Of a stretch of 64,000 nucleotides of DNA, positions 3,291 through 42,454 are shown in pieces; position 1 is the first letter of the stretch; the number at the start of each line of letters is the position of its first letter. This stretch comes from a virus. Position numbers and translations under genes: made by a program. The notes beneath the pieces were generated by a model. That model was not told where the DNA came from. It was given only the letters and a program-made list of their open reading frames with translations, and ran no database searches. The DNA is taken from IMG/VR virus record IMGVR_UViG_3300045988_179183. The stretch is one strand, 5' to 3'.

Positions 3291-3327
3291 ATTTCATATT
3301 GATAAAAGAAAGGGTGTTACCCCTTTC

Positions 3328-13171: not shown

Positions 13172-13172
13172 T

Positions 13173-16352: not shown

Positions 16353-17117
16353 CTAAGCATCTCTCTTATCTCCGAAGATTATTATATGTAAGCGGTCAGA
16401 GTAGAAGTAGCCCAAATCTATACATCTCTGTGCCAACCATTTTCTTTTCTCTGCCAGTTTCTCCTCGGTATCCCCCTCCGGCATCAGATAGACTATTACA
16501 GGCCAGAAGGGGTCCAGTTTAGATACCTCCTTCTTAATTTTCCGAACTTGTCTCTCGACTTCCTTTATATCATCCTCCGAGGACACCACATATTTCAACT
16601 GCGAGAATTTCGATTCCATGATCCATGACACTATAGCGGGGATATTCTCCCTCGTTTTCGCGTGTTTCTCCGCGAATTCGCCCGAACTCGGAATTGAACT
16701 CTTCAATTTAGGTGAGATTGATACGACGTCTACGTACGTATCCTCATCCAGTACATCACCTCTCGCGATGGTTCCGTTCGTTTCCATGCTCACACTCAAC
16801 TTATGTCTCCGACCTATCTCGATCAACGATCTCAACAATTCGGGATGAAGGGTCGGTTCTCCCCCGGTAATAAGCATGCATTTTATCTGAGGGTTCATGA
16901 TTATGATATCGACGACATCGTTCAATGAATATTTACCCTTTTCCGGGTTCCACGAGCTGTAGGCCGTGTCACATATACTCCCTTTAAAAGTACATCTCAG
17001 GTTACACCCAGATGTTCTTATAAGAATATGGGGGACCCCCACCTTCATACCCTCTCCCTGTATACAGGTGTGCAAATCAATAATCGGTTGAATTTCTGAA
17101 TAATCCATTTTTAACAT
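16353..17117 (-). CDS. queE: 7-carboxy-7-deazaguanine synthase QueE (radical SAM)
   Basis: IQGEGMKVGVPHILIRTSGCNLRCTFKGSICDTAYS, followed by GGEPTLH. The Cys spacing is Cx3Cx6C rather than Cx3Cx2C. Confidence 0.8.
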   Translation of the reverse strand: MLKMDYSEIQPIIDLHTCIQGEGMKVGVPHILIRTSGCNLRCTFKGSICDTAYSSWNPEKGKYSLNDVVDIIIMNPQIKCMLITGGEPTLHPELLRSLIEIGRRHKLSVSMETNGTIARGDVLDEDTYVDVVSISPKLKSSIPSSGEFAEKHAKTRENIPAIVSWIMESKFSQLKYVVSSEDDIKEVERQVRKIKKEVSKLDPFWPVIVYLMPEGDTEEKLAEKRKWLAQRCIDLGYFYSDRLHIIIFGDKRDA

Positions 17118-17344
17118 AAATAAGCGTTATACAATTCTATAAACTCGGCGAGATCCAGTTCTGAGAATCTCCGTTCTTTCGCAATCTCTTTAATAAGATC
17201 AAGTTGATTTTCATAAAGCTCGTCCGCCATCTCACCATACCCGCTCACCCTTAAATCAATCACAGGCAATGAAAGTTCAAATGCCAGACTTTCATCAAAC
17301 CCATAGCGATCAACAAGATCATTTAGTTCCTTTTTCGTTATCAT
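17111..17344 (-). CDS. Hypothetical small acidic protein (77 aa)
   Basis: ORF overlapping both neighbours by a few nt, suggesting translational coupling between queD and queE. Confidence 0.5.
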   Translation of the reverse strand: MITKKELNDLVDRYGFDESLAFELSLPVIDLRVSGYGEMADELYENQLDLIKEIAKERRFSELDLAEFIELYNAYLC

Positions 17345-17916
17345 AACTTCACTTGTAGTTCAACCTTTGGGTTCACGAATTTAATCCCTCGAAAAAGTTT
17401 ATGATAAATCTCAGTTTTTGCCAGTGAAGGGCTAACTTCTATTTCTTCGGGATACATTTCCAAGTATCTATCATAATCATTTCGATCCGATTCGGCATAA
17501 CCAGTATCTGTTTCATGAACTCGCACTGATTGCACAACCACGTTACCCTCACCATTGTTAAATTCTGTTTTTTCCAATATCGATTCAAAACAAGCGAAAA
17601 ACATGGATGAGAGTAATTCAGCGGAGGGATTGCAAGGTAAAATTATCCACCTATCATTCATCGCCTGTATAAAATTTTTGTAAACCTCGTTATCCTTCGC
17701 CCACAATAAATGAGTATGATCGAATAAATCAACGACTTCTTTAAAATTACCAAGAAGACCGAAATCGACGACCATCCCTGCGTTATCCAAACGATCCGAG
17801 GTCAAAAATAACTCAACTTTATAGCTGTGTCCGTGAATTGAATGTGAACATCTGTCCGATGTACAATTTCTCACAATATGGCTTCCCTCAAACTTAAACA
17901 ATTTTCTAATTATCAT
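17341..17916 (-). CDS. queD: 6-carboxy-5,6,7,8-tetrahydropterin synthase QueD (PTPS family), long form
   Basis: FKFEGSHIV..CSHSIHGHSYKVELFL and VRVHETDTGYAE match PTPS/QueD signatures. Confidence 0.8.
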   Translation of the reverse strand: MIIRKLFKFEGSHIVRNCTSDRCSHSIHGHSYKVELFLTSDRLDNAGMVVDFGLLGNFKEVVDLFDHTHLLWAKDNEVYKNFIQAMNDRWIILPCNPSAELLSSMFFACFESILEKTEFNNGEGNVVVQSVRVHETDTGYAESDRNDYDRYLEMYPEEIEVSPSLAKTEIYHKLFRGIKFVNPKVELQVKL

Positions 17917-20861: not shown

Positions 20862-23800
20862 TCAATCCAAATCAACAAAATCAATCATTGCCTGTACGTT
20901 GTTTTCCCTCAAATCTTGTATTGCCATGAACGATGACATACATATATCATCATGTCCACAAACTGATTCAAGAGTCCCTTTCTTTGAGTTAAACGCGATT
21001 GAATTAAATTCACCAAACATCGTATCAACCAACTTTCGTGTGTTTTCATCTCCGTAAGGCACCCTCAAACGTGCACTTTCAAAAAACGCTGATAGTGAGG
21101 GTAGACCTGATTTCAGATCCTTTTTATTCCCTTCAGTTGTGATAAATTCCTCGACATTAACTAATCCCCTCTCTTTCGCCATACCCGCAAGAATTCTTTG
21201 AAATCCATTCGACTCACACACGGATTTGTTCGGTTTATATCTCGCGTTAAATTCAATAAGTTTATTCACTTGAAGATCATGGCTCGCACCCTGCTCTCTA
21301 AATATATTTATAAGATATATCAATCCGTGTGCATCCATACCCCATACAGTGTATACTGTATAATCGGCACCCACATTACCCGATATCGCAAAATCACATC
21401 CCACGACAACCCTGACTAACTTTATGGGGTAACTTTCTATATCATTTGCGAAACTGATATGTTCCATCCCACGTATCGATCTTTTCAGAAATTCATACGG
21501 GAAAATCGTTGACGTGTCCGCGATCGGCACAACTAGATATTCTCGGTTGAAAACTAACGTTCCAAGTGATTTCCGTTCCTCCGTTAACCTTTTAAACGTA
21601 AGACGATCAGGTGCTAACAGTTGACCATTTGGGAAAACCGCCGGGTATTCAAATACCTTGAATCGGCCATCTTTTTTTAAATCCCCGTAAATATCCGTTG
21701 CCGAATACGGTGTGTTGTGTGATATTATCCCATTCGAAATAAACCGATGAGAAATTGGGATTTTGAAATCAACGGTGTAAGACTCACTCTCAATTATCGA
21801 TTTTATCGGTGCGAAATGATACTTCAAATTCATATTACTCAAAATAATCTGAACATCAGGATCATTTTGAGGTAAAGATAAAATCCATTTTTTTATCGGT
21901 CCGTTCATTCTTTTAAAAGAATGAACTTTCGTATAAAAATCCCCCGATCTCATACCGTAAAATTTCATCTTATCATTACCCAACGGATATTTTGATCGAA
22001 TCTTTCTTAATATCACCGATTGAAACGGTATTCCTTTATCAATGCAAGAGGATTCTCTCCTAGTTTCTCGCGGAACCTTCCCTTTTCCTGAATAAGTGAA
22101 CCCGATTTTCTCCATGAATAGTTTCACGCTCGAATTTTTGCTTATAACCAAATTGTATCCTGTTCGGTTTGATTTAACTAATTCGGTTGATTGGCATTTT
22201 TTCTTCTCAATACGTGAATCAATCCCCATGTTAAGAAGAAGTATTTGAATCTGCTGGATTAAACGAAAGCTCGTTGAAAAATAGCTTACATTTATTCCTT
22301 TATCTGAACGATGTCCGTGATAGCAGCATCCATCGCCATCAAAACACCCTCGAAGAAACCATATAACATCCTCCTCGGACGCACTCATGATTTTATCAGG
22401 AATTGTCTTGGTATGCGAATACATCCCTTTTCGATACCCTAAACTCAACCACGTGGAGATTTTCTCCTTGCTATTAAACGACATCCCTATGTGATTTTTC
22501 TTAGGGTGATACCCCCTCTCATTAATCAGAAAATTTCTTATACCGGGATTCTTTTTTGTTATCGTGACCCTATTTCCATAACCACTTAAATCCAACGTAC
22601 CGTCCGCTATACAAAGCCCGATTTCATAAAGCTCCTCCCCTTCTATACCAAGAGAACGACCCCAAATATTTGACCCCATCTTAAACGCGACAAAATCTCC
22701 TTCATACAAATCTTTCGCGTTAACCCATTCGAATAAGCCCGTTTCCGAATTACATCTAAGTAAAGGATGAATGAAACTTGTTTCAATCTCCAATCCGTTT
22801 GAAAGGGTTATGATTTTTGTGGGGGTTTTTCCGTTTACGTAATAGTCTGTCGCGTTAACAAATCCCTCACCATCATGAATGTTCATATCAAGAGGGAAAA
22901 ACCCCTTCTCTCTTTCAATATTAACAGGAGATAATTTGCCAATTTCAGTTAAACCGTTTTCGGTAAACACGTACGTATCTGGTCTCACACAACCGAGTAC
23001 ACATAAATAGCCGAACGGTTCCACGATCGGAGTGATTGACCCGTAAAAAACTTCATGAAGCTTCTCCCTTTGCTCTTGTGAATACAACGAACTTTCATCA
23101 GGCAGGTCGTCGCATACGACGGCACCAACGTGAAGACCTCGAATCATGGAATCTTTCGATCTCAAATGGAGGATTGAATCTGTTTCAGTCGTGATTGATG
23201 TCGCGGCTAACTTAGCTTTTCCGTTGCGATTCAATTTCTCCCGAAGAATATCATTTTGCTCTATCTCGGAAATAATCATCGCGATGTGTTTCTTGCCGAG
23301 TGTTTCATTATTCGTAATCATACACGTTTCCTTACGATTCTTATTGTCGATACTATCCCTAAGAAACGTGGTTGGTCGGTCATAAGAATATAACCTCCAT
23401 AAAATGAATGCAAAACACCCCTCGTAACTATTATGTACAACGGTCCCATCTTTCAAGAGAAAAAGGTGATCTCCGTCACAAGAAAAACCAACATAATCGC
23501 CATCACCGATACATTCAACCTTGAGAGAGGTTGATAAATTATCCTGCACCGTGATTTTTGAAGGTATCTTCTTTCTTTCTATTTTCACAGGAATTTCATC
23601 AACATCTCCCGAAATTGTTATCCTGTAATGAGTATAATCATGAAGGATGTTTTCACCCTTTAATGTTTTCACCTTTACATCTGCCGTCCGAGTTATAATC
23701 GAATTACATCTGAATCCCAATGATTGAGCAAGTCTTTGCGTTTGCTCTATTAAATTCCTGTCCTTAAACCCAATTTCAAAAGCATATTTACTTCGAGGAT

Positions 23801-24875
23801 TTCCTTTTTTATACTGGGATGAACCGTCAGTATCAATTAACCCGGCTAAAAGTTTCAACCGTTGTTCCCTTGATCCAAGAAGATAAATTTCAGGTATATG
23901 CTTATTACCAAGAACCCCTAAATCTTTAAGAGCGGTTTTTAGGCGGTTTTTGAATAACCTTTCTTTTTCAATAATTCGATATGAATATTTATTTGAATTA
24001 TGTTTTGACAAAATAAAACCGTTTTTCTCACAAAATTCATTTAAATATTCAATTATTTCATGATCAATAGTTGTCACTACGGGTTCCGTGTATAAACCAT
24101 CACCCAACCACAACCCCAATAAATACGGATCAACAGGAAGGTCTTTTTCAGGAAGGTCCCACCCCTTCGTTCTATACCCCATTATTTTTCTCTGAGTGTA
24201 CCCTGGCATAGAGGGGATCTCCTCAACGGGAATATTAAAGGTTTTCCAGCGCATATCTTTCCCAATACGTTTTTCATATCGAGATGGAACCTTCTTTTTG
24301 CAACAAACAATATGACCCTCGTTTACAACGTAATCAATACCCCATGTTTGTTTCACTTTCCACATTCTCGATCTACCTTTGTGTAAAGATAAAACGGTTC
24401 TTGGTTTTGAATCGGGCCCCATAACTTGATCTCCGATCGAAACATCCTTTATCTTGCGAATCGTTCCATCAGCCATCACTATTTCTGTCTCGGGAGATAA
24501 ACACTTTCCCGATGAGCGGCTCGCTAAAATGCAGTTATACAAATATAACTGGAATAGGTTACCCCATTCAAGGTTTCTCCATCCCTGTCGAAACGTTGGA
24601 AGACAAACAGTTTTAAAATAATTATAACTCTGCTTACGTAGCGAGAGGTCCATGCTCTTCTCCACGTTGGCGAGATATTCCAGTTTTTCCATGTCAAGAG
24701 TTCTATCCATGTGGGTAACGATGCATGTTTGTTCTCTCATCACGGATAGAAGCCGATCCAAATCATTTTCATAACCTGAAAGTAACTCTTGGATCGCCTT
24801 CGGTGGTAAACTCGATATTATCTCCCTGACGTAGTTATCTATATAGCTTTCTTGTACGGGAGATAATAACATCAT
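20862..24875 (-). CDS. terL: Terminase large subunit interrupted by two inteins (1337-aa precursor, 553-aa mature)
   Basis: The exteins rebuild Walker A ILASRSSGK|S, Walker B VVCDDLPDE and the coupling motif LCVLG|TPYSATD. The C-terminal nuclease domain reads VVGCDFAISG..ADYTVY. Confidence 0.85.
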   Translation of the reverse strand: MMLLSPVQESYIDNYVREIISSLPPKAIQELLSGYENDLDRLLSVMREQTCIVTHMDRTLDMEKLEYLANVEKSMDLSLRKQSYNYFKTVCLPTFRQGWRNLEWGNLFQLYLYNCILASRSSGKCLSPETEIVMADGTIRKIKDVSIGDQVMGPDSKPRTVLSLHKGRSRMWKVKQTWGIDYVVNEGHIVCCKKKVPSRYEKRIGKDMRWKTFNIPVEEIPSMPGYTQRKIMGYRTKGWDLPEKDLPVDPYLLGLWLGDGLYTEPVVTTIDHEIIEYLNEFCEKNGFILSKHNSNKYSYRIIEKERLFKNRLKTALKDLGVLGNKHIPEIYLLGSREQRLKLLAGLIDTDGSSQYKKGNPRSKYAFEIGFKDRNLIEQTQRLAQSLGFRCNSIITRTADVKVKTLKGENILHDYTHYRITISGDVDEIPVKIERKKIPSKITVQDNLSTSLKVECIGDGDYVGFSCDGDHLFLLKDGTVVHNSYEGCFAFILWRLYSYDRPTTFLRDSIDNKNRKETCMITNNETLGKKHIAMIISEIEQNDILREKLNRNGKAKLAATSITTETDSILHLRSKDSMIRGLHVGAVVCDDLPDESSLYSQEQREKLHEVFYGSITPIVEPFGYLCVLGCVRPDTYVFTENGLTEIGKLSPVNIEREKGFFPLDMNIHDGEGFVNATDYYVNGKTPTKIITLSNGLEIETSFIHPLLRCNSETGLFEWVNAKDLYEGDFVAFKMGSNIWGRSLGIEGEELYEIGLCIADGTLDLSGYGNRVTITKKNPGIRNFLINERGYHPKKNHIGMSFNSKEKISTWLSLGYRKGMYSHTKTIPDKIMSASEEDVIWFLRGCFDGDGCCYHGHRSDKGINVSYFSTSFRLIQQIQILLLNMGIDSRIEKKKCQSTELVKSNRTGYNLVISKNSSVKLFMEKIGFTYSGKGKVPRETRRESSCIDKGIPFQSVILRKIRSKYPLGNDKMKFYGMRSGDFYTKVHSFKRMNGPIKKWILSLPQNDPDVQIILSNMNLKYHFAPIKSIIESESYTVDFKIPISHRFISNGIISHNTPYSATDIYGDLKKDGRFKVFEYPAVFPNGQLLAPDRLTFKRLTEERKSLGTLVFNREYLVVPIADTSTIFPYEFLKRSIRGMEHISFANDIESYPIKLVRVVVGCDFAISGNVGADYTVYTVWGMDAHGLIYLINIFREQGASHDLQVNKLIEFNARYKPNKSVCESNGFQRILAGMAKERGLVNVEEFITTEGNKKDLKSGLPSLSAFFESARLRVPYGDENTRKLVDTMFGEFNSIAFNSKKGTLESVCGHDDICMSSFMAIQDLRENNVQAMIDFVDLD
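21714..22991 (-). mobile_element. TerL intein 2 (426 aa) before the GTP/motif III site, with a LAGLIDADG endonuclease
   Basis: Codon-checked boundaries: CVLG|CVRPDTYVFTENG at the start and SNGIISHN|TPYS at the end. LAGLIDADG motifs are LYEIGLCIADGTL and WFLRGCFDGDGCC. Confidence 0.85.
23430..24503 (-). mobile_element. TerL intein 1 (358 aa) in the Walker A P-loop, with a LAGLIDADG endonuclease
   Basis: Codon-checked boundaries: SSGK|CLSPETEIVMADG at the start and KDGTVVHN|SYEG at the end. LAGLIDADG motifs are LLGLWLGDGLY and LLAGLIDTDGSS. Confidence 0.85.
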
Positions 24876-28588: not shown

Positions 28589-29398
28589 TTAAATGGTCCA
28601 ATACTTACGTAACGTATCCTGATCACTAACCGTGATCACTCCGTTATTATTAACAACTTTTGCTAAAAGGAATTCGATATCCTGAACATACGCTGGAGGG
28701 CCGCCATTAACCGATTCAGTCAATAACTTCGACGCGTTATATCTATCATATGAATACAATCCCTCTTTCTGTTCGTCTGAGAAATTAGTACCGATGGGTA
28801 ATGTACCGAGAACAACCATTTTTAGATTCTGCTCGGCAACCAAACTATTATATGAATTAATAATCGCGGAAGTTCCGTTCACGACATCAACAACTTCGTA
28901 TATGCCGTTATTCAAAGGATCTGACCCGTCTTCTTTCTCAAACTTAATACTGATCGGTGCCTGACTTCCCTGCCCTCTTAGAACGTTTAAGAAATCAGTG
29001 TTTAGCCCGTTCAAATTTCCATTCACATCGACCGATACGTACCCATCCTCCCAGTGAACGATATCATACGCTAGAAAGACATAATAAGGTATCCCGTTGT
29101 TGGGAACTTCTAGATATCGTATTTCAGGTACTGTGATTAACTGTTTGTTCTTCGTAACGATATACCCCGGGGTTATTTTAATCGTGCCGGGATTCGAATC
29201 AGCTGTCACTCTTAGCTCTGTCGAACTCGATCCCCCCGCTGATGATACTATCCCCCATGATTTCGTTATCCCCATCAACAGGGTCTTGCAGAAACCCAGT
29301 TCGGAGAGAAACTCCTGACTTTTTTGTAGCTCCTCCTTTGAAAGAAACGTTCTTCTGTTATAATTTAATTTACTCATATATCCTTTTGTTTTAATCAA
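28589..29398 (-). CDS. Hypothetical fibre-associated protein
   Basis: ORF downstream of the LRR protein gene. An alternative start lies at 29377. Confidence 0.5.
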   Translation of the reverse strand: MIKTKGYMSKLNYNRRTFLSKEELQKSQEFLSELGFCKTLLMGITKSWGIVSSAGGSSSTELRVTADSNPGTIKITPGYIVTKNKQLITVPEIRYLEVPNNGIPYYVFLAYDIVHWEDGYVSVDVNGNLNGLNTDFLNVLRGQGSQAPISIKFEKEDGSDPLNNGIYEVVDVVNGTSAIINSYNSLVAEQNLKMVVLGTLPIGTNFSDEQKEGLYSYDRYNASKLLTESVNGGPPAYVQDIEFLLAKVVNNNGVITVSDQDTLRKYWTI

Positions 29399-32300
29399 CT
29401 AAAATCAAATTCCAACCTTTTGCTAGCACCAAATCACGAGAAGGCCCACCCTCTTTTAAATAAAGATCACTGTTTGAATAATAATACTTACCATCAGTTG
29501 TTGAATTTAAGTAACGTAAAAATCCGTTGTAATTACTCAAAAGTTCGGATGCGACACGAGCGTTCTCGGCATGAATTTCTTTATATGAAGGTGTCTCCGA
29601 TGAGACTACCATGGTGTCGGCTGAACATCCTGCAAAATTCAGGTATGTTATCCTCGTTGAAGTGAAAACTTCTATCCGCTCCAACTGTTTACAATTCTCA
29701 ACAGACATCCATCTTAAATTAGCACAGTATTTTACTGTACCACCGACAGATTTTTGAACCTCCGTTCGAACCGCAGTTGAACCGCTAATATCAATCACTT
29801 CAAGCCCCTCCATATGATAAAGAGGAACCCAACCTTCATACGCGTCTTGTGGTGAGAATTGCGTTAAATTTCTCAAATACAACTCTTTCAGTTTACTTGA
29901 TTGCAATAACGCGTAATAAACTTGCGCACCCGGAAGATTCACAGAATCGGATAAATCAAGATACTCCAACGAAGTGGGAACTGCGATAAGCAGGGTTTTC
30001 AATGAGTTATTCTTACTCAGATCTAATTTGACAAGATTCCGTGTTACAATCCCGAACGCGGGTATTGATGTGTTCGATGATAGCCAAGTTTGAACGTTCA
30101 TTATCGAATTCCACCAACCGAGTCCATCAATGGTCATATCGGGGTTATTATTTAGGTTGACATTCAATAAATTCGAATTATTCGTCAAATCTATAAGTTT
30201 CAACTGATTATTGCTCGCATTGAAATCCTCTAGCTTATTACCCGCTGCCAACGCTTTTCCAAATGTTATCGAAGGTTGACCTGATGATTGATTTTTTCCC
30301 AGTTGATTATACGAGCAATTGAATTTTCTCACATAATCGATTGTAGATAAATCCAACGTTGTTAATTCGTTGTATGAACAATTAACAAGTTCAAGTTTAG
30401 GAAAACGGAGCGCACCGACATTTTTATAGTAATTGATCAACCGCTGAACATCACTATCGGAAAAGTATCTATCAGTTATGATAACATCCTGCGCTCTTCC
30501 TTTAAACAACTTCCACCCTGATTGATATCCCCGGCCGAATGATATATGCTCGGTTCCGGTAAATCCAAGTAATCCATCATACGATAACGTGTCGCCTCCG
30601 GGTGTTGTTGATGCCGTGTATTTAACACCGTCAACATATATCTCGGTTAACCATGGGCCACCATTCCACTTAAATCTGAACATGACATGTTGCCATCGAT
30701 TAGGAGTTAGCTGGATCGCTTGACAGGTTTGACGCCCCGATCTCGTATAAAGGTCGACCGTTAATTTATTTTGGAACGTATTTTGCCCCCATCCAATCGC
30801 CCATCCAAATTGTCCTGTATTTAACCCGAAAAACACACCACCACATAGCCCCTGATAAGAAGTGACATCCGTTGGATAAATCATAAAACTACCTGAAACT
30901 TCTGACGTTACATTCGAACTCATTGTTAAAGGTAACTCAGCGTAAGTGCTTCCCATTTGGAGAGCGGATCTACCTTCTTCGTAACCTTCGACATAGCGCG
31001 GTTGCCCGACAATTGATGAAAATTCGAGTAAACTCTTATTCATTTTATTCATGTTTCCGTTAAGCAGATACGCTATGTCGATCGGGGTGGTCATTGAATT
31101 AACCACATCCTCGACATTCTCCGCCGTTGAACCACCCTCCGGCGTGAATGTTAGATTGGTGAGATTGTTATTATCGCAATTCAATGTCGTTAAATTCACC
31201 GTGTTCGTTAGATTCAATGTAGTCAGTAGGTTTTCACTGATATTTAATACCTGCAATGACTCACCTATTGCGTTTGGATCAAACGAGGTCAATAAGTTCT
31301 GATTCAGGTTCAAATTCACGATATTTTTACATCCCGTATAATTAAATGTGTGAATTTGATTGTTATATAGATAAACGAATTTCAACGCGTTATCCGTCGA
31401 TATATTAACCGTCTCCAAGGCATTATTATACCCGTTTAAGGTTTCAAGTACAGGGTTGTTCGAAACATCCAGTGTTTCCATCAACGCATTATTCGTCGCG
31501 GTTGCCGTTTTTAAAACAGGGCAATCATGTAACTCGACAAATTTAAGCTGAGGTTTATTACTGATGGTAAACTGGGTGAAGTTATTATAACTAGCATCGA
31601 CATTGACAAGATTATTACTTGTCACAATACTTGCAGCCGAACTATCCGTCAGTAAATTGTGTGAACAGTTCAATCCCCGTACGCCGGGGTGGGAACTGAG
31701 GTTAAGTGATGTTAATTGATTATTATCAACATCAATATTCTTCAACTCAGTGTTATTCGTTAATGTTATCGATGTCAATTGATTGTTGGATAAACTCAAA
31801 TTCGCAAGTTTCGTACAATACGGGGCTGAGAACGTTGTTAATCTATTGTTATCCATCGATAGAGTTGCGAGGTTGCTGTTTGTACTCAAATCGATCATGG
31901 TTGAAATCGATGTATTATCAGTTCTTAAACTCTGTAATTTACCGTCATTCAGAACATTCACGCTCGTCAAAATCGAGTTATCACCACAATCAGCTGTCAA
32001 TAAACTACCGCACCCGGATATATCAACTGAGGGTAATTTCGAGTTATTCGTCACATTTGCCACCGTCATCGCCGGACACTTACTCGCTGTCAACGTCGTT
32101 AGAAGATCCATCCCCGTGACTGTTAACGAGGTCATCACGGGCATATCGGCTATTAATAGAGTGGTAAGTTTCGGGTAACCCGCCCCCGTGAAATTACCCG
32201 TGGAGAGGTTATTCTTTCCTATATTCAAATCGACTAAGATGTTCGATGATGGGATTGTGAACGTGGTTAATTTATTATTATATACCGTGATCAATTTCAG

Positions 32301-34646
32301 ACTCGTTGCGTTACCCAAGTTCAAAGATGTCATTTGATTATTATCGGCATTCATGTTGATAAGCGCAACATTCGCGGCAACGTTAAGAGAAGTCAACTTG
32401 TTATCGTTCAAAAGTAAGTTTTTTAACGATACGAGGTTACTCAAATCAAGCGACGAAAAGTTATTTCTCCCCAAATCCAAGTAATTCACATTCGGATTCG
32501 CGGTTAGGGATAGATTGGATAATTTATTATTCTTCAATGAAATCGATGTTACCTTTGTTAACGATGATATATCTATCTGGGTTAACAAATTATTATCCAT
32601 GTTAAGAACATCGATATTCGGCATATTAGTAAAACTGACAGATATAATTTCATTATCGGGTACGTTCAATGTCGTTATATCCCCGTCATTGATCACGATA
32701 ACGTGTTGGGCCTGATTATCAGTATATCGGTGTGTTAGAATATCGGTTGTCGTCACACCATCCCCCCAATCAACAACCAACTTCCCATCATACTGAGTTC
32801 CCTCGAAAGAAAACGCACGTTTTGACGTGACAAAATTCATCAACGATTTTTTGAACACGACGTTTGCGACTATGTTTTTGCTCATCGAAACCAGATATTG
32901 ATTCGAAACTGGCTTCATCTCCCCGTCTATCTCGACCGAATCTATCTGATACCCAACACTAGGTGTGATTCTGATAGTCGCGATATCCCCGGCTCTGTAC
33001 GTCCCGGCACCCACAACAACACCTCCGGCTGTTGGAACCCAGTTAACTGTAAGAACGAAGAACATAATATCAACACCCGTTAAATAAGTTGGTAGCAGAA
33101 CATTGTTCTTGTAACTTAAAAGGTATTGCTCCGTGAAGTTCTTAATATATGATTCCTCCCTCCCGGAATTATTATAAAAGTATGTTGCAATCGGTAGTAT
33201 CGAACTCAAGTATCCCCGCTCGATCGATAATTGTAGCGGTTTTACCTTGATATCTCGTATTAGAAGTGCCTTATCGCCGCTCTGATATGTTTGTGTTATA
33301 ACGGGCGTGAAATATCGCATATCCTTGTGGGATAACAAGGGTGTCCCGTTTAGGAAGTTAAGTCTCACATTCGGGTTCGGATATTCATCCGCTCTTAATA
33401 TAACCGCACGGAACCAATATTCAACACCGATCTGATTTATCACCCGTGGTGTATCCTTGTCGTAAAATGAATTCTGAGGCTGCCCGGTCTGAGCGTTGGA
33501 AAAATCCAAGGGTGAGAGATTTTTATCGTAACCCTTCACACCGAAATTCAAATGATCGGGTGCGGTTACCTCACCGGAAATGGCGATGACCCTGAAATAA
33601 ATCTCATAGGGTATGGAAGGCGAGATCTTCAACAATTTTTCTTTATCAACAGGTGCTTCAATACCGTTCGTCCCCGCGGATGTTGCCAACCTCAACCATT
33701 CATAGAGTCCGTGTTGAAAAACATCAACTGAACCAACGACAGGATACTTCGATATATCCTTAATCGATTCGGTGTACTCATATGCCTTCATCGCGTTAAC
33801 GATCTGCTCCGTTCCGATCCACATGGGCGAGGAGAAATCACAACACCAGCCCAGATCCTGTCTCACTAAGTTAAAAAACATGAATTCCTCGTCCGGGTTA
33901 TAATTAATCAGTCTCAAAAATTCCCCGTTCACCGTCCCGTCCATGTCTATGATGTTACGCGTTCCCCTTTTTCGAAATTCATCTATGTAATGCGAGAAGA
34001 GATAATTTCTCTGTAATTGAGTTTCCTCCCCGGAAAGGGCCAACCCCCTTCCCTCCAGAAATAAATTGAATAGAATGTTATTTCCCGGTATATCCTCAAA
34101 CTGTCGTGCCATGTAAACGATCAGAGCGAAAAAATGCGTTATCGATAGCCAATAATCGATGAAATCCTTACTATTCTCCGTGTAATCTCTTTGTACATAT
34201 TTAGGAAGTATTCCTAATTCATATAATTTTTCGAGCACGTTAAAAGCCCAGCCCAGAACATTGATATCATTAACATCGAAAAATTGCTTGAAATCCGTTT
34301 TCGAATATATCGTATCATCGCCTTGACGAACCTCGCCTTCAAGCTGAACCCAGTTAAAATAGAGCTCTCCATTCTGTCCTTCGTGTTCATACGTGTATTC
34401 GAATAAAAACGATTCCTTTTCCTTGATTGGAACGTTTTGTAGGTTCGCGGCTGTCAAATTTTGCCAATCACTCCAATTTGTTCCTATATCTTTTGAATAG
34501 CGGAATTTCTTCTGATAATACATATCGGCTGTTTCACCGGATGTGTTATCTATGAAACCGTACAACAAAACTAAACCCAAAACGGGTACATCAGTACTGA
34601 TATGGAGCACATCGCCATTCTCCGTTGTTTTATTCTCAATGATCAT
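29391..34646 (-). CDS. Giant tail adhesin with leucine-rich repeats (1751 aa)
   Basis: Domain layout: an N-terminal ~530-aa domain; an InlB-B-repeat-like Ig module (GAGTYRAGDIATIRITPSVGYQIDS); ~25 LRRs of about 22 aa (e.g. LTSLNLSS..L..L.C..N.LT) at aa ~657-1168; a LamG-like insert at aa ~1196-1410; and a second LRR block at aa ~1416-1670. Confidence 0.7.
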   Translation of the reverse strand: MIIENKTTENGDVLHISTDVPVLGLVLLYGFIDNTSGETADMYYQKKFRYSKDIGTNWSDWQNLTAANLQNVPIKEKESFLFEYTYEHEGQNGELYFNWVQLEGEVRQGDDTIYSKTDFKQFFDVNDINVLGWAFNVLEKLYELGILPKYVQRDYTENSKDFIDYWLSITHFFALIVYMARQFEDIPGNNILFNLFLEGRGLALSGEETQLQRNYLFSHYIDEFRKRGTRNIIDMDGTVNGEFLRLINYNPDEEFMFFNLVRQDLGWCCDFSSPMWIGTEQIVNAMKAYEYTESIKDISKYPVVGSVDVFQHGLYEWLRLATSAGTNGIEAPVDKEKLLKISPSIPYEIYFRVIAISGEVTAPDHLNFGVKGYDKNLSPLDFSNAQTGQPQNSFYDKDTPRVINQIGVEYWFRAVILRADEYPNPNVRLNFLNGTPLLSHKDMRYFTPVITQTYQSGDKALLIRDIKVKPLQLSIERGYLSSILPIATYFYNNSGREESYIKNFTEQYLLSYKNNVLLPTYLTGVDIMFFVLTVNWVPTAGGVVVGAGTYRAGDIATIRITPSVGYQIDSVEIDGEMKPVSNQYLVSMSKNIVANVVFKKSLMNFVTSKRAFSFEGTQYDGKLVVDWGDGVTTTDILTHRYTDNQAQHVIVINDGDITTLNVPDNEIISVSFTNMPNIDVLNMDNNLLTQIDISSLTKVTSISLKNNKLSNLSLTANPNVNYLDLGRNNFSSLDLSNLVSLKNLLLNDNKLTSLNVAANVALINMNADNNQMTSLNLGNATSLKLITVYNNKLTTFTIPSSNILVDLNIGKNNLSTGNFTGAGYPKLTTLLIADMPVMTSLTVTGMDLLTTLTASKCPAMTVANVTNNSKLPSVDISGCGSLLTADCGDNSILTSVNVLNDGKLQSLRTDNTSISTMIDLSTNSNLATLSMDNNRLTTFSAPYCTKLANLSLSNNQLTSITLTNNTELKNIDVDNNQLTSLNLSSHPGVRGLNCSHNLLTDSSAASIVTSNNLVNVDASYNNFTQFTISNKPQLKFVELHDCPVLKTATATNNALMETLDVSNNPVLETLNGYNNALETVNISTDNALKFVYLYNNQIHTFNYTGCKNIVNLNLNQNLLTSFDPNAIGESLQVLNISENLLTTLNLTNTVNLTTLNCDNNNLTNLTFTPEGGSTAENVEDVVNSMTTPIDIAYLLNGNMNKMNKSLLEFSSIVGQPRYVEGYEEGRSALQMGSTYAELPLTMSSNVTSEVSGSFMIYPTDVTSYQGLCGGVFFGLNTGQFGWAIGWGQNTFQNKLTVDLYTRSGRQTCQAIQLTPNRWQHVMFRFKWNGGPWLTEIYVDGVKYTASTTPGGDTLSYDGLLGFTGTEHISFGRGYQSGWKLFKGRAQDVIITDRYFSDSDVQRLINYYKNVGALRFPKLELVNCSYNELTTLDLSTIDYVRKFNCSYNQLGKNQSSGQPSITFGKALAAGNKLEDFNASNNQLKLIDLTNNSNLLNVNLNNNPDMTIDGLGWWNSIMNVQTWLSSNTSIPAFGIVTRNLVKLDLSKNNSLKTLLIAVPTSLEYLDLSDSVNLPGAQVYYALLQSSKLKELYLRNLTQFSPQDAYEGWVPLYHMEGLEVIDISGSTAVRTEVQKSVGGTVKYCANLRWMSVENCKQLERIEVFTSTRITYLNFAGCSADTMVVSSETPSYKEIHAENARVASELLSNYNGFLRYLNSTTDGKYYYSNSDLYLKEGGPSRDLVLAKGWNLILVD

Positions 34647-35987: not shown

Positions 35988-38900
35988 TTATCCGAAAACT
36001 AAATATAAAACCCCACTTGCCTGTGTAGCCGGTAACGCGTCAACCGGCTGAATATCTGTGACCTTCTTGGTTGAAGTCGATTTCACGAAATTCTGGGAAT
36101 TAACCCACGCCTGAGTCGCGTAACCATTTAATGCAGAACTAGTAATAAATCCACTATCATTAGTCAAATGACTGGTATTTGTTGGTATATTAACTGTTGC
36201 TGCAGCACCATTAGGATCAAATGTTTTAGCAGAGAAAGTTCCAGCTTGGAATGTTAGATTATATATAGTTTGATGTGATGTTAGATAACCCTTATTATTT
36301 ACCCATGTTTGGGTGGCCACTAAATCTCCATTCATGTATAAACTACCCCAATATCCATTAGCATAAGAAGTACTAGAACCAGCTCTCCATACCCAAGTAG
36401 AAGGAGCATAAGTACAACCAGAAGGAATTCTATAATTAACTATCACTTCATTGGAAGCAGAAGTGGCAATAGTATTTCCTAAACAAAATTCATTTCCTCT
36501 AGTTCTAATAGTAGTATAACTACCAGTAGTATTGTATAATGATAGGGAAGCAAATTGACCATTAGCCCAACTCTGTGTTGCATATCCATCTAAAGAACTA
36601 GATGTTAAATATGTAGCTCCTTTAGTAACAGTTAATGTATGGCCATTAGCTGTTATTGCAGTTACAGCATTACCAGAACCACTATTAGATATAGAGATAC
36701 TTGGTATAGATGGTATTTGATCTGTAGTAGCTATTGTTTTTCCAAATAAAAATCCTTTAGCTGTGCTTAAGTCTAATTGAAATGTTGAAGTATTAGACAA
36801 AGTAATCCTAAAAGTATTACCAGTATTTAATAATTCCATACTAAGTAGTCTTTCAGCTGCAGTGGTAGTATCTATAGCTGCACCAGATCTTCTAGCTACT
36901 AATAAAGGAGTTTGACCCCCATCCCCTGGAACTTGAACACTTAATGCTCCAGCTCCTCCATTCCAATTATTTCCTGTTCCTCCAACTACATCAATTACAG
37001 CATTATTTTTTCTGCTGTTCATGGTCAGAGCACCTGTTAATGTTCCTCCAGACAAAGGTAAATATCCTGAAACAGTAGGAATATCTGTAATTAAAGCTAA
37101 TCTAGTACTGCCAGAAGTTGTTCCAACTCTAGCATATCCATCATTATCTATAAATAAATATTTGTTAGAATTATAATTATATATATAAGCACCTAGACTA
37201 TCCATGAATCCTATTGCAGCTGAAGCAGTTCCCCTTCTAAGAACTCTCATAAAAGTTTCAGATCCATTAGTGTCATTATTATTAATTACAAGAGTTGTGC
37301 TTCCAACTGTATTTATAGTTAAATTGCCTGATAATGTTCCTCCAGTTAGAGGAAGATAATTACCTATATCAGATGTAGTAGCTAATTTAATCCACTTTCC
37401 AAATGATGTCCATTTAGTTCTATAATAAAGTTCTGTCCTATTAGCACCTGCCCATAATTGGATTCCTTCATCATCTCCTTGAACACTAAATAATAATCCA
37501 CTACTTGTTGGAGTTCCAGCAACACCCTGAGTTTCAGCATAAAATATTTGATTAGTAGGTACACTATTTGGATTATTATTATAAGATGCTGATAATATAT
37601 TAACATCTTTATTTGTTAATAACCTATTCCATTCTCCATATGTTGTCTCATTATAAGCCATATGCCTATAATAAAGACCATTTTTACTAGCTTCTGCACC
37701 ACCTGGAAACCATAATTGATTTGCCCAATGAGCATTTCTTGAATTTACTTGTAATACAGTTCCATAATTAGTGGGACCTCCTGCACTAGATACATCATAA
37801 GCATCTAATACTTGTAAATACCCACTATAATTTCTATTTGGAGTTAAATCATTTGTCCAAATACTACTTCTAAATCCTATTCCATTTTCAATATATATAA
37901 TTCCTCTAGAATAAATTCCATTAGCAGGTACTAAATTTAAAGCATCACTGGTATAACTTGGTCCTACATACAATCCTCCAGTAGCTACTTTATGAACTCC
38001 ACCAGCAGAATTTAGAAACTGAAATGCATTAGTGGAGGCGATCATATATGGACCCGTTACACCGAATACCAATTTGTTGGTATATACCGATGCGATATAT
38101 CCTGCCAGAAAAGCCCAACTCGATGATCCTAATTGCGATACACCACCCGATGCAAGACTCTTTTCGACATTGGGAAGGAAACCATTACCATTTGCTCTCA
38201 ACCATGGATACGTTGTGCCGTCAACTCTGATGATCGCCGGGTAATTGTTCTCATCGAAAGATAACCCAGCAATATTCTCATCTGCGGTCACGACTCTCTT
38301 CCAGTTGGATGAATCACCGTACCCAAGGTTATTGGCGGTCCTGAACCACATCCTGCCTGTTCCGTTATCCACGTTATGGATTATATCGAATGCGAGCTGA
38401 GTTTTCAGTGCCGCCTCATTATAGGATGAAGTGTAAGGTCCATCTATCTGTAATACATTGCCATAACCCATACCAGTAGGTGCATTGACAATCTTCCCTG
38501 GGGTGTAATAATTGAATAGGAGTTTCGGTTTATCCACCCCGATCATAGAATTCGCATCGTACCCATCGTTATTAACAGCGTGGGAAACAAATCCGTAAGT
38601 CCATGTGATGTTTTGGGGGAGGAACTCCGTGTAATTCGATGAATCAAGAATCGTGTAATCAGTTGCCCCCTTGGTGTGAATCAAATTGACATTACCACTT
38701 CTAATTTTAGTGGTACCTGAAGCACGACCTAAATGTGCCAACGTTGAACTCTGAGACCAAACCAACGCATTACCGTTCGGGTCATCCAATGACCATGTGA
38801 TTGGAACTACTAATGAAGCGGGTTTGAATTTATATTGTGCTGTACTAGAATTAACATCTCCTATACCTATATAAGCATATCCAAGATTAGTATTATTAAC

Positions 38901-40985
38901 TGAATTGTATCCTCCAAATATAGACTTTGAAGTGGCATCACTATTAGCTTGAAATGTAAGATTTCTTGCCCATGCACTTCCTGCAGGTGTACTTATATTT
39001 ACTAACAAATGTTCATTATTTGTAACTTCAAAAGAACCCACATTAAATTTACCTACTTGAAATGTGTTATTACCAGTAAATGTATTATTCCCTGATTTCG
39101 TTGCGGGATCAGATAAATTATATTTATCCCAGATTTCATAATAAGTTCCACCATGTCCAATAGCCCATTTATCTCCTGCATATCCAAATACCCCTAACTG
39201 AGAGGCTTGTGAATTTATAGCTTGTATAATACAATAATTATCAGCATCAGTGGACTGTAATCTCAATTTAATATCCACTGATTGTTTTATTGTAAGTTGT
39301 CCAGTTAAGGTACCTCCAACAAGTGGAAGGTACTTACCGTCACCCAGATCCTCTAATTGTTGCCATACGGGTGCGCCGGTACCGCTTGAGACAAGGTAAT
39401 ATCCTTTTGTTCCGACCGTTGTCGGGGCGAAGATCGACGTTGTCGGTGCGTTCGTCGCGCTTAAAAAAGTCCATCCTGTTCCATTAACACTCAAATTTCG
39501 ATCGTATATCGTCGTGGGTGTCCCAATGGCACCACCGTTATAAACTGTGGGTTTACTAAGATTATAGGAATCCCATATTTTATATGGGGTGGTATGTCTA
39601 TAATGTATTAAATCCTTATTCGAACTATAAATATTAAGATCTAATGCCGTGTTGCCAAAGCTTAATGTTTCTATGTTGTTAGTATTGTTGATAATTAAAA
39701 GTGTGGCAATCCCTTGTGATATTGATGCCAATAAGGGCTTGTTACCAAGATTTATACTACCAGTCATTGTGCCACCAGAAAGTGGTAAATAATTAGCTAA
39801 ATCAGTTGTGCTCGCCGGGGTTGGTAGGTTATAAGCATCCCATATTTTATAACTAGTATCCGACCTATGATGTAAGAGATCGCTAGCATTTGAAATAATT
39901 CTAGTTGAAAGAGCTGCTGATCCTATATCAAGTCGATTATTAAAAGATCTTAATATGTAGGTGTCACCAGTGCCATCAGCATTTCCTATTATACCTGATT
40001 CTGCAGGAAATCTAATACTACCCTTCATTGTACCACCGGCAAGGGGGAGGTAATTGGTTAGTTTATTATTGAAATCATCACTTAACGTTTTTAACGCGTC
40101 CGTGACAGCTTTCTGAGACATGACTTTATCCGTCGCCGCACCCGATACTTGAAGAACTGATGCTTTGTCAAACTTCAAATTAAGGGCATCCGTCGTTGCC
40201 TTCTGAGACATCGGATCAATTGTTGATTCCCCGGTTCCTTGCTGACTCACCAACCGATTGATGATATCATTATAATTATGTTTATGCGCCGGTGTGAGCG
40301 GAGTGAGTGGTGAGGGATCTCCCGGAACGATTGATCCATTTGATAGAGCCTGTAACCATGAATATTGTCCCGGCAACATAACCCCGGCTAATTGATCTGT
40401 CGCACCTTGAATCGTTGTCTCCTTTCCGGCAGAGCTGTGAATCGTCACCTCCGTCTCCGAATATGACGTGGTTAAGTTAACCGTGATATTTATCTTTCCC
40501 AGGGATTCCCAGGACCGGGTGACCTCATCCCAGACAATCTTCTCCGAATCCTCGAATGTCTTCCCGCTATACGGATCTGTTACCGTCCCCCCGACGGGTG
40601 AAGTGATGATAACGTACATATCACCCGCTTCCAACGTTGATGGATTAGGAAAATCCGCGCTCACCCGGATCACCCCCTTGAAATCAAGAGGATTACCCAC
40701 GGCACTTTTAACGAAATCCTTTACGGTTATCTTGTAATTGACGTTATTCGAATTAATCAACATGTAATCACCATCATCCGCTAGTTGCCGGGGTGGTAAT
40801 GTAACCAGCCACCCGTCGACATACGCTCGAACCCATTTATGGGTTGCAAGTTCCGACCATGCCGACCCGTCGTAGGCACGAAACACAAACGGAACAACCG
40901 TGTTATCCAACCATATCAGGTTGGTATTGCGGGGAGCGGAACTCCCTATATATATGGCCGCGACCTGTCCTAAATTTCTAATCAT
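35988..40985 (-). CDS. Long tail fibre protein (1665 aa) with repeated fibre modules
   Basis: YLPL(S/A/V/T)GGT(M/L)(T/K/S)G occurs five times. The modules (H)YRH..YKIWD.YNL recur. The sequence is Ser/Thr/Gly/Asn-rich, and the gene sits after the baseplate genes. Confidence 0.8.
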   Translation of the reverse strand: MIRNLGQVAAIYIGSSAPRNTNLIWLDNTVVPFVFRAYDGSAWSELATHKWVRAYVDGWLVTLPPRQLADDGDYMLINSNNVNYKITVKDFVKSAVGNPLDFKGVIRVSADFPNPSTLEAGDMYVIITSPVGGTVTDPYSGKTFEDSEKIVWDEVTRSWESLGKINITVNLTTSYSETEVTIHSSAGKETTIQGATDQLAGVMLPGQYSWLQALSNGSIVPGDPSPLTPLTPAHKHNYNDIINRLVSQQGTGESTIDPMSQKATTDALNLKFDKASVLQVSGAATDKVMSQKAVTDALKTLSDDFNNKLTNYLPLAGGTMKGSIRFPAESGIIGNADGTGDTYILRSFNNRLDIGSAALSTRIISNASDLLHHRSDTSYKIWDAYNLPTPASTTDLANYLPLSGGTMTGSINLGNKPLLASISQGIATLLIINNTNNIETLSFGNTALDLNIYSSNKDLIHYRHTTPYKIWDSYNLSKPTVYNGGAIGTPTTIYDRNLSVNGTGWTFLSATNAPTTSIFAPTTVGTKGYYLVSSGTGAPVWQQLEDLGDGKYLPLVGGTLTGQLTIKQSVDIKLRLQSTDADNYCIIQAINSQASQLGVFGYAGDKWAIGHGGTYYEIWDKYNLSDPATKSGNNTFTGNNTFQVGKFNVGSFEVTNNEHLLVNISTPAGSAWARNLTFQANSDATSKSIFGGYNSVNNTNLGYAYIGIGDVNSSTAQYKFKPASLVVPITWSLDDPNGNALVWSQSSTLAHLGRASGTTKIRSGNVNLIHTKGATDYTILDSSNYTEFLPQNITWTYGFVSHAVNNDGYDANSMIGVDKPKLLFNYYTPGKIVNAPTGMGYGNVLQIDGPYTSSYNEAALKTQLAFDIIHNVDNGTGRMWFRTANNLGYGDSSNWKRVVTADENIAGLSFDENNYPAIIRVDGTTYPWLRANGNGFLPNVEKSLASGGVSQLGSSSWAFLAGYIASVYTNKLVFGVTGPYMIASTNAFQFLNSAGGVHKVATGGLYVGPSYTSDALNLVPANGIYSRGIIYIENGIGFRSSIWTNDLTPNRNYSGYLQVLDAYDVSSAGGPTNYGTVLQVNSRNAHWANQLWFPGGAEASKNGLYYRHMAYNETTYGEWNRLLTNKDVNILSASYNNNPNSVPTNQIFYAETQGVAGTPTSSGLLFSVQGDDEGIQLWAGANRTELYYRTKWTSFGKWIKLATTSDIGNYLPLTGGTLSGNLTINTVGSTTLVINNNDTNGSETFMRVLRRGTASAAIGFMDSLGAYIYNYNSNKYLFIDNDGYARVGTTSGSTRLALITDIPTVSGYLPLSGGTLTGALTMNSRKNNAVIDVVGGTGNNWNGGAGALSVQVPGDGGQTPLLVARRSGAAIDTTTAAERLLSMELLNTGNTFRITLSNTSTFQLDLSTAKGFLFGKTIATTDQIPSIPSISISNSGSGNAVTAITANGHTLTVTKGATYLTSSSLDGYATQSWANGQFASLSLYNTTGSYTTIRTRGNEFCLGNTIATSASNEVIVNYRIPSGCTYAPSTWVWRAGSSTSYANGYWGSLYMNGDLVATQTWVNNKGYLTSHQTIYNLTFQAGTFSAKTFDPNGAAATVNIPTNTSHLTNDSGFITSSALNGYATQAWVNSQNFVKSTSTKKVTDIQPVDALPATQASGVLYLVFG

Positions 40986-41280
40986 TCACAGTTTGAATTA
41001 ATTGTCCATCTAACCTATCTATCTTGTATTGATCGGGATTGTTCGATTCAACGATCAAATCACCGCTTCCATCAACATAAAATGTATCCTCGACCCCTCC
41101 CTTAACTCTCATCACCAAATCACCGATACCGATCTTCTCGCCCTCCATTGTCCTGTCAAACTGGGATATGAAAAAGAACAAAAATTCTCCCGCCCCATCC
41201 TTGTCATAATAGGTTAATATCTCAATATAAGGTCTGTATATATTGAAGACGGTCGATGTATTCAGTTTCTTAGTCTCCGG
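40978..41280 (-). CDS. Hypothetical small baseplate/fibre-proximal protein
   Basis: ORF between the baseplate J-like gene and the fibre gene. I prefer the start at 41280 (MPETKK). Confidence 0.45.
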   Translation of the reverse strand, partial: PETKKLNTSTVFNIYRPYIEILTYYDKDGAGEFLFFFISQFDRTMEGEKIGIGDLVMRVKGGVEDTFYVDGSGDLIVESNNPDQYKIDRLDGQLIQTVND

Positions 41281-42454
41281 CATAATCACTGGGATAAAAT
41301 ATCGGTGACAGTACTCCGTTTGAATCAAATATTGGATCACCTTTTAAATCTCTCATCACAAACCCCCTAATACGAGGAAGCTCATTTATGGGAACAAGCT
41401 CGTCGGCAGAAGGATAAAATGTTGAATCTTGGACATACTTAACACCCTCCGTATCCTTCACTATACCTAATAAATCATCCCACTCTACCTTCGATCCCGG
41501 TACCCAGTATCTAAAATCGAGATACTTTGTCATCGCGATTTGAATATTCCGACGTACATCATCGGGATCATAGTTATCTGCTATCTCAACCCTGAAATCA
41601 ACACCCCGGCTTCCACCCACACTATACCATTTCACATTCGTAAGAACTATCTCAACTGTATCGCCATATTTATTTCTATCACTTAGCGGGAAATATGGTG
41701 CAGCTTGTTCTAGTAAATTTGCCAACTCAGTATCGGTAAACTCAACGCCATTCTGAGTCGAAAGTGCTAATTGTAATTTCGCATTCTCATTTACACCGAA
41801 ATTAAAAAACATCAGCACTCTATCGTCTATATTTTGGAAAACTTGTGTGAAATATTCCCTTGTACCAATTGATAATATATTCAAATTATTTCTAATCCGA
41901 ATCCTGAATGTTTCATCATCTTCTGAATCTCTCCCTCCCACCGCGTAATATTCGTTTGAACACGCCTTATGACCGACAGGTTCGGGAACCACATTCGTAA
42001 TCGTATTAGGGGCTACATTCGTCTGAGATCCTGTTCCAGCGCTCCTCACTTTCACATACGTATAGCCGTTATCACCCACTGTTGCATCAAACTCGGTCAT
42101 AAAACGAACACCGTTTATATTCACGAATTCCGTTTTACCGGCTTCGTAAAAAGTTCCCTGTTCGGCGATAACCTTAACATAGGTCGAAGATCCCAGCGCA
42201 CCCTTTCGCGGACTAACACCGAATAGCTGGGCCGCGACATCGAGATCACTCCCGGAAGCTGTATCCGGGAATATACGTGCCGCCACGATCGCGACGTCCT
42301 TTAAACACTTCTGCCCGACTTTCGCAACACCGAAAGCCGTGGCATTCACAACCGAGTTATCGCTGATATCCGACACTTTATCAGTTTTATTCAGGAACAA
42401 CTCGATGAACAAACTTTTCAGAAGGGATATTGTATGTTTAACGCCTATTATCAT
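41270..42454 (-). CDS. Baseplate J-like (P2 gpJ / T4 gp6-like) wedge protein
   Basis: NATAFGVAKVGQKCLKDVAIVAARIFPDTASGSDLDVAAQLFGVSPRKGALGSSTYVKV matches the Baseplate_J pattern. The position also fits. Confidence 0.55.
   Translation of the reverse strand: MIIGVKHTISLLKSLFIELFLNKTDKVSDISDNSVVNATAFGVAKVGQKCLKDVAIVAARIFPDTASGSDLDVAAQLFGVSPRKGALGSSTYVKVIAEQGTFYEAGKTEFVNINGVRFMTEFDATVGDNGYTYVKVRSAGTGSQTNVAPNTITNVVPEPVGHKACSNEYYAVGGRDSEDDETFRIRIRNNLNILSIGTREYFTQVFQNIDDRVLMFFNFGVNENAKLQLALSTQNGVEFTDTELANLLEQAAPYFPLSDRNKYGDTVEIVLTNVKWYSVGGSRGVDFRVEIADNYDPDDVRRNIQIAMTKYLDFRYWVPGSKVEWDDLLGIVKDTEGVKYVQDSTFYPSADELVPINELPRIRGFVMRDLKGDPIFDSNGVLSPIFYPSDYAGD

Follow-up and report, generated by a model that had tools for sequence, protein, structure and literature searches.

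Mosaic fibre genes were reportedly described by Tetart, Desplats and Krisch in 1998, by Haggard-Ljungquist et al. in 1992 and by Sandmeier in 1994, both for the T-even phages, whose gp37/gp38 adhesins are said to be swapped at conserved motifs, and for the side fibres of P2, Mu, P1 and lambda. Here we analyse a tail-fibre gene in a 64,000-nucleotide (nt) stretch of viral DNA from IMG/VR record IMGVR_UViG_3300045988_179183 (the window, by which we mean this whole stretch), in which a 1.9-kb block contains no CG dinucleotide (CpG) at all. Like the mosaics of the T-even phages, P2, Mu, P1 and lambda, this gene pairs a conserved anchor at the N-terminus with distal modules that can be exchanged, shares near-identical DNA with otherwise unrelated phages and has its breakpoints at short repeated motifs. 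We consider it very probable that the gene is a recombinant, into which CpG-free cassettes have been imported from the fibre genes of crAss-like phages. Formation of a mosaic fibre gene by exchange at motifs is a well-known kind of event and the mechanism is an ordinary one; what is unusual here, and unlike the earlier mosaics, are the partners (a contractile-tailed gut phage and crAss-like podoviruses), the placement of the cassette inside the gene, between lineage-specific ends, the last 43 amino acids (aa) included, and the tagging of the donor DNA by an absent dinucleotide, which makes every junction visible without comparison.

In its composition the block is like an atypical genomic signature of the Karlin type, or a genomic island, in that it departs from the resident sequence and fits the donor in CG as well as in the remaining 15 dinucleotides. 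Unlike genomic islands, it is of one-gene scale, bears no sign of amelioration and belongs to imports that recur across a phage family, as opposed to one ancient event. The donors, for their part, resemble phages that avoid restriction sites or palindromes and vertebrate viruses with CpG suppression, since a short sequence has become extremely rare on either strand and in every codon phase; unlike in those cases, a whole dinucleotide is gone (observed/expected ratio, o/e, of 0 to 0.03) and not sites of 4-6 bp, and the hosts are bacterial. No description of CpG-free or CpG-depleted phage genomes was found in the searchable literature, the coverage of which was partial, so that novelty is not proven, and nothing relevant was found there on crAss-like phages and myoviruses exchanging fibres. 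No other phages are as abundant in the human gut as the crAss-like phages.

By dinucleotide count the window holds 3005 CGs, an o/e of 1.24. Working from the letters alone, a first-pass annotation had reported that 36121..38038 contains none, that further CpG-free patches lie at 38821..39098 and 39106..39337, and that these parts are AT-richer and use AGA, GCA/GCT, CCA and ACT-type codons; overlooked sites, or comparable CpG-free stretches elsewhere, were named as what would speak against it. Our recount agrees with that description and revealed neither. The block is bounded by CGs at 36119 and 38039 with none in between, and this gap of 1920 nt is the largest in the window. The next two gaps, from 38819 to 39099 (280 nt) and from 39104 to 39338 (234 nt), also lie in the fibre gene, and outside the gene the longest CG-free gap in the window is 162 nt. 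About 52.8 CGs are expected in the block from its own base composition (Poisson probability of zero ~1e-23), and 1920-nt stretches over the rest of the window contain 64-122 CGs each, with a median of 92. The G+C content (GC) of the block is 33.5%, compared to 44-48% in the neighbouring CpG-containing parts of the fibre gene, and its arginine codons comprise 17 AGA and 5 AGG with no CGN. NCG codons are likewise absent, and none of the 191 codons preceding a G ends in C, indicating avoidance at the level of the dinucleotide, beyond codon choice.

With CG left out, the dinucleotide distance between the block and the window backbone is 0.27, whereas random backbone chunks of the same length do not exceed 0.144. 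The corresponding distance to crAss-like genomes is 0.12-0.155, the minimum for backbone pieces being 0.166, and the coding-strand CT, GG and GT biases of the block also agree with those of the donors. The values for TG and CA are 1.15 and 1.10 in the block and 1.07-1.13 and 0.99-1.08, respectively, in the donors; this excess is small, roughly what full CpG conversion would be expected to leave at this composition, and is therefore non-discriminating for methylation and deamination.

The first-pass annotation had recommended a homology search of 36121..38038 apart from the rest of the gene; this part matches crAss-like fibre genes at up to 98% nt identity. We compared the entire fibre gene by blastn with all fetched loci (given here by their L numbers) and mapped CG content and homology in 99-nt bins. 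Every bin without CG has an 82-98% nt match in a CpG-free phage, and no bin with CG has one. Numbered along the gene, nt 3623-3953 of the block match L070 at 98.2%, L065 at 97.5% and L066 at 95.7%, nt 4699-4887 match L059 at 95.2%, and L056, a member of a third CpG-poor lineage, aligns with the block over the greatest single length (nt 2982-4368, at 87.9%). Homology and CG content switch at nt 948 (YLPLAGGTMKG), at nt ~1650 (YLPLVGGTLTG) and at nt ~4390 and ~4864, which are two GYATQxW motifs; nt 3623 and 3953, the limits of the 98% sub-module, are two YLPLxGGTLxG motifs. Up to GGTTA (nt ~4864) at the 3' junction, the window and the crAss-like sequence do not differ; after it, the window reads TAC GCG ACT CAG GCG where the donors have TAT GCT ACA CAG AGT. 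Such a pattern would be expected from homologous recombination at conserved linkers.

The gene lies directly downstream of baseplate genes, next to a Baseplate_J gene, with tail sheath, tail tube and major head protein genes further upstream of the latter in the order of transcription. The sheath, tube and baseplate genes identify the carrier, a ~102-kb human-gut phage, as contractile-tailed, that is, a myovirus. As the fibre protein of the window has no match in Pfam, PHROGs or PDB sequence searches, its assignment as a tail fibre, already made in the first-pass annotation, relies on gene position and on homology: the donor homologues carry Phage_fiber_rpt (PF22337) and Gp53-like_C (PF21882) domains. 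The block had also been placed correctly in the distal two-fifths of the protein. An identical fibre protein is found on 7 human-gut metagenome contigs of up to ~102 kb.

Along the protein, parts of resident type and CpG-free or CpG-poor parts alternate (Table 1). The N-terminal 316 residues, presumably the baseplate attachment domain, are encoded with 36 NCG codons and 21 junctions between a C-ending and a G-starting codon, and their DNA is 88-97% identical in 12 of 12 family members with no match in crAss-like phages. Segment A has homologues of 40-55% aa identity in both lineages, which are CpG-free, and nt 949-1232 within it match resident relatives only, at 88-92% identity; it is possibly an older import. 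The sole close relative of patch B is in the resident-family locus L004 (86% aa, 20 CG in 300 nt), its best crAss-like homologue being 54% identical in aa and CpG-free, and its dinucleotide signature is closer to the backbone. Segment C contains only two CGs (39099 and 39104), which sit at the meeting point of two homology blocks: nt 1650-1886, with 89-93% nt identity to crAss-like L062, L063, L064 and L072 (93% to the first three), and nt 1836-2199, with 78-83% nt identity to L065, L070 and L059. Patch D, too, has a sole close match in the resident family (L013; 91% aa, 37 CG in 777 nt); its homologues in CpG-free phages reach only 35-57% aa identity, there is no nt match in crAss-like phages, and its signature distance is 0.147 to the backbone compared to 0.23-0.26 to crAss-like phages. 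Within block E, YLPLxGGTxxG and GYATQxW motifs delimit smaller sub-modules, so that the block, too, is a mosaic on a fine scale. The C-terminal 43 residues, finally, are 95-100% identical in aa among all complete members of the family, compared to only 46-47% for the C-termini of crAss-like fibres.

The donors were found among IMG/VR relatives of the block's protein. Their fetched loci of 12-23 kb contain 0-2 CGs at 28-31% G+C and share no backbone gene with the window, only weak similarity to two genes downstream of the fibre. The donor portal is 55-57% identical in aa, over 90-93% of its length, to those of cr108_1 and PhiCrAss001 (Crassvirales, Steigviridae), and terminase, portal (phrog_6547) and major head protein stand in crAss-like order on contigs of ~100 kb; these hallmark genes place the donor lineage among the crAss-like phages (Crassvirales). 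The lack of CG extends over the donor genomes: IMGVR_UViG_7000000112_000001 has 0 CG in 59,084 contiguous nt (contig 29453-88536; L108, L090, L069, L081, L119) where 1,356 are expected, IMGVR_UViG_3300029564_000006 has 1 in 58,246 nt sampled (1,121 expected), and IMGVR_UViG_3300045988_156696 has 7 in 57,841 nt sampled (1,119 expected). The cultured PhiCrAss001 (NC_049977.1) has 84 CGs in 100 kb, which gives an o/e of 0.029, and tRNA genes account for 18 of these; the o/e is 0.10 for cr85_1, 0.55 for cr108_1 and 0.098, over 50 kb, for the unrelated Bacteroides myophage DAC19. The larger point is that there are whole ~100-kb phage genomes with no or almost no CG, the laboratory model PhiCrAss001 among them.

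By megablast, the donor loci L059 and L069 have no match among GenBank phages. L043, the first CpG-poor locus (crAss-like, cr85_1 type), was rejected as a donor, having no more than a 28-aa motif in common with the fibre, and MT835494, the nearest GenBank match to the donor tail protein, is irrelevant, with a GC of 51% and normal CG content. A Firmicutes host for the donors, considered because their tail protein is like those of Bacillus phages, was dropped since the portal places them in Crassvirales. Two donor genes appear to be interrupted. The ORF (open reading frame) for the major head protein in L081 (6113..8046) matches only the C-terminal 60% of the profile and is preceded by a homing endonuclease ORF, suggesting a capsid gene split by an intron, and the donor terminase ORF (L119 5975..11272, 1765 aa) looks fragmented or furnished with inserts.

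The same cassettes are also found in the third CpG-poor lineage, represented by L056 (109.5-kb contig), L071 (175.9-kb contig) and L073, which have different backbones, a flank o/e of 0.18-0.34 and a GC of ~29-30%; L073 encodes aa 552-627 of the window's fibre at 94.7% identity. The cassettes are therefore not confined to crAss-like phages. Together with the long match to L056 and the low CG content of DAC19, this would be compatible with a variant of our explanation, in which a wider pool of cassettes is shared across several CpG-poor Bacteroidales phage groups and the immediate donor was not crAss-like. We regard this variant as unlikely, if worth keeping in mind, because the top identities of 95-98% are to the wholly CpG-free crAss-like loci L070, L065, L066 and L059, and because zero CGs in 1.9 kb suit a donor with an o/e near 0 better than one with an o/e of 0.2-0.3.

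Import from crAss-like phages would account for the architecture of the gene as follows. The N-terminal 316 and the last 43 residues would stem from the phage's own lineage, and the cassettes 36121..38038 and 38821..39337, about half of the gene and encoding most of the shaft and the distal part, would have been copied from crAss-like fibre genes. As the donor genomes are nearly devoid of CG, the imports appear as CG-free, AT-richer islands in a CG-rich genome. The exchange may have occurred by homologous recombination at the sequences encoding the YLPLxGGTxxG and GYATQxW motifs during what we infer to have been co-infection, and the composition match suggests that the transfer went from crAss-like phage to myovirus. 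It would appear to be recurrent, each family member having a different set of CG-free cassettes between the same conserved ends, and the likely outcome is that receptor-binding specificity is swapped among unrelated phages sharing hosts. Of the two origins that the first-pass annotation had offered, recombination with a donor whose dinucleotide bias is very different is borne out by the CpG-free donor genomes, by nt identities of up to 98% and by the signature match, and selection against CG in this module only is unneeded given donors that are CpG-free genome-wide. On this explanation, the block is evidence at base-pair resolution of recent, repeated DNA exchange between two unrelated, uncultured gut phage groups, with crAss-like receptor-binding modules circulating beyond Crassvirales. 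Such exchange implies that both groups co-infect the same hosts, providing a host clue for the uncultured myovirus, and zero CG offers a simple marker for tracing transfers of this kind in metagenomes.

Several points weigh against import from crAss-like phages. All sequences are metagenome assemblies, and the junctions are seen at contig level. No exact donor for most of the block was found among the fetched loci, identities being 82-91% over much of it and 95-98% for sub-modules only, and the immediate donor could belong to the lineage of L056, L071 and L073 instead. Going by the matches available, segment A and the CpG-normal patches B and D do not appear to trace to a source. A scan of bacterial genomes for a prophage copy gave only one weak match, at 26%, in a Neisseriaceae metagenome-assembled genome, which is uninformative as to the host.

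Alternatively, selection specific to the module, or a local mutational process, might purge CG from the variable part of the fibre with no foreign donor involved. The pattern across the family bears directly on this possibility. Twelve relatives were examined that match the window at 97-100% over the first 300 residues of the fibre. In all twelve the first 948 nt are CG-rich, followed by a region with 0 or nearly 0 CG (up to 2,880 nt, in L012) and a CG-rich stretch of the last ~130 nt. The variable region is thus CG-free in every member despite differing cassettes, which have 40-94% protein identity to those of the window in fibres of 1148-1665 aa, and differences between cassettes almost never create a CG, as local purging would predict. 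However, ten family members, when set against the window, show backbone differences of 3.6-4.4%, with 31-32% of the differences making or breaking a CG, whereas the CG-free cassettes differ by 10.1% (2.5x the backbone) with 1.9% of the differences doing so, more than half of these contributed by L013; beyond gene nt 948, the relatives' cassettes differ by at least 10% or are non-homologous. Cassettes that are more diverged than the genomes carrying them, with almost no CG-touching changes, imply that their divergence arose under a CG-free regime outside this lineage. Repeated replacement of cassettes from a CG-free pool is the simplest reading, and continuous local purging of CG is unnecessary. 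Furthermore, the same sequences occur in phages that lack CG genome-wide, the other 15 dinucleotides of the block are donor-like, the CG boundaries coincide with homology breakpoints, and the CpG-normal patches B and D lie inside the same variable region. We therefore judge purging confined to this module to be very improbable.

One relative, L010, carries within 11736..13182 two copies (90.8% and 97.4% identity) of the sub-module that corresponds to window gene nt 3602-3944 and lies between two YLPLxGGT motifs, so modules undergo duplication in addition to exchange.

Many assemblies of the family break off within the fibre gene or shortly behind it (L008, L009, L010, L014), or else ~8 kb further downstream at a shared position (L004 and L005, Logan contigs of ~43 kb), presumably because co-existing strains carry different cassettes. 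Such breaks could also be taken as a sign of assembly chimerism, in which reads of a crAss-like phage and a myovirus were joined at shared conserved motifs, and three of the listed contigs with the identical gene may stem from one project. Chimerism would nevertheless require several false joins, all in frame, as the ORF of 1665 aa is intact and resident sequence flanks each foreign segment. Moreover, the same architecture recurs with different cassettes in ENA, in Logan and in the IMG/VR samples 3300039321, 7000000624 and 3300045988, which are independent data sets and assemblers, and the cassettes of the window differ by 2-18% from every crAss-like sequence found. We hold chimerism to be, if anything, a shade less probable than local purging. 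That a diversity-generating retroelement, an invertible segment of the Gin/Cin type or a shufflon diversifies the fibre tip deserves hardly any credence: hypervariable distal fibre regions are in general the usual targets of such systems, but self-comparison of the 64-kb window (~38 kb of the genome lie outside it) found no second copy of a fibre segment, direct or inverted, the neighbouring ORFs scanned include no reverse transcriptase, invertase or recombinase, the variable region measures 2-3 kb and not ~0.1 kb, and neither retroelement nor inversion produces CG removal. Engineered 'CpG-free' synthetic DNA was rejected in view of dozens of natural, diverged homologues in independent metagenomes.

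Table 1 Features of the window, with the parts of the tail-fibre gene listed from N- to C-terminus.
Feature	Position	Strand	Remarks
Tail-fibre gene	35988..40985	-	1665 aa ORF; contains the whole mosaic
N-terminal part, 316 aa (gene nt 1-948)	40038..40985	-	resident lineage, CpG-rich; ends in first YLPLAGGTMKG (40020..40052)
Segment A, aa 317-445	39650..40037	-	CpG-poor variable module; 5 CG, o/e 0.39
Patch B, aa 446-549	39338..39649	-	CpG-rich, o/e 1.56; resident-type composition
Segment C, aa 550-722	38821..39337	-	CpG-free cassette, very probably imported; begins at YLPLVGGTLTG (39300..39332)
Patch D, aa 723-982	38039..38820	-	CpG-normal, o/e 1.01; resident-type composition
Block E, aa 983-1622	36121..38038	-	0 CG; distal fibre cassette, very probably imported; sub-module motifs YLPLxGGTxxG (37326..37358, 37032..37064) and GYATQxW (36567..36587)
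C-terminal 43 aa + stop	35988..36120	-	resident lineage, CpG-rich; cassette junction inside GYATQAW (36105..36125)
Baseplate_J gene	41270..42454
QueC	11441..13228	-	5e-36; intein-split
DpdA-like ORF	14356..15252	-	phrog_887 'queuine tRNA-ribosyltransferase' 1.6e-10, ~half of profile; no Pfam match
ParB-like protein	15245..15682	-	adjoins DpdA-like ORF
FolE (GTP_cyclohydroI)	15686..16327	-	1e-48
QueE-like radical SAM enzyme	16353..17117	-	5e-11
QueD (PTPS)	17341..17916	-	3e-22
RecA	235..2235		intein-split
Large terminase subunit	20862..24875		1337 aa; intein-split
DNA polymerase III alpha, two ORFs	8313..9935, 5536..7503
Homing-endonuclease-like ORF	7586..8386		phrog_314
Leucine-rich repeat protein	29391..34646		1751 aa

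The backbone of the window phage encodes what is predicted to be a complete gene set for preQ0/7-deazaguanine synthesis (Table 1), which probably means that the phage DNA contains modified guanine. Such modification of phage DNA protects against restriction (Hutinet et al. 2019, PMC6884629), and like the described 7-deazaguanine systems the recipient encodes FolE, QueD, QueE, QueC and a putative DpdA-like transglycosylase beside a ParB-like protein; this likeness is predicted from genes and concerns the recipient backbone, not the block. We hypothesise that the pathway may allow the backbone to tolerate CG and even to carry it in excess. By codon reasoning, CG can be removed in all three codon phases without any change of protein (CGN to AGR, NCG to NCH, and NNC before G to NNT before G), and a genome-wide purge would be feasible for CG and not for TA, GC or AG, the three others considered. 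That at least two unrelated Bacteroides phage groups are almost free of CG points to a host-linked pressure. Tentatively, and with rather little confidence, we suggest that CG elimination is a genome-wide counter-defence of unmodified Bacteroidales phages against a CG-dependent host defence or against the CG-containing Bacteroides restriction sites, which form a very large and variable set; the window phage would instead replace guanine with a 7-deazaguanine derivative and stay CG-rich, and its fibre would record the flow of DNA between phages following either strategy within the same host cells. Should evasion of CG-directed defence or of restriction sites prove true, it would be directly testable in culture and would bear on phage design for gut use. 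A dCTP-deaminase-like protein is also encoded within the 11441..17916 gene set.

The nearest cultured relatives of the window phage by its major head protein are the Bacteroides thetaiotaomicron myophages DAC19, DAC20 and SJC03 (37.7% aa identity), and the phage probably infects Bacteroidales. GenBank phages yielded no match to the fibre region by megablast or to the block by tblastn, leaving this lineage, like that of the donors, unrepresented there at such similarity, and no tRNA gene is present in the 64-kb window. All gene-like ORFs of at least 100 aa are on the minus strand, and the plus strand contains 23.7% C compared to 16.0% G. Inteins with LAGLIDADG or Hint domains split RecA, QueC and the large terminase subunit, the last with two intein-like insertions, and DNA polymerase III alpha is found in two ORFs with the homing-endonuclease-like ORF between them, so that the gene could be split or contain an intron. 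The 1751-aa protein combines leucine-rich repeats with a domain like the InlB B-repeat and is encoded two genes downstream of the fibre. The CG content of its gene is normal, and its residues ~1200-1410 are 30-32% identical to a protein adjoining the fibre gene in crAss-like phages.

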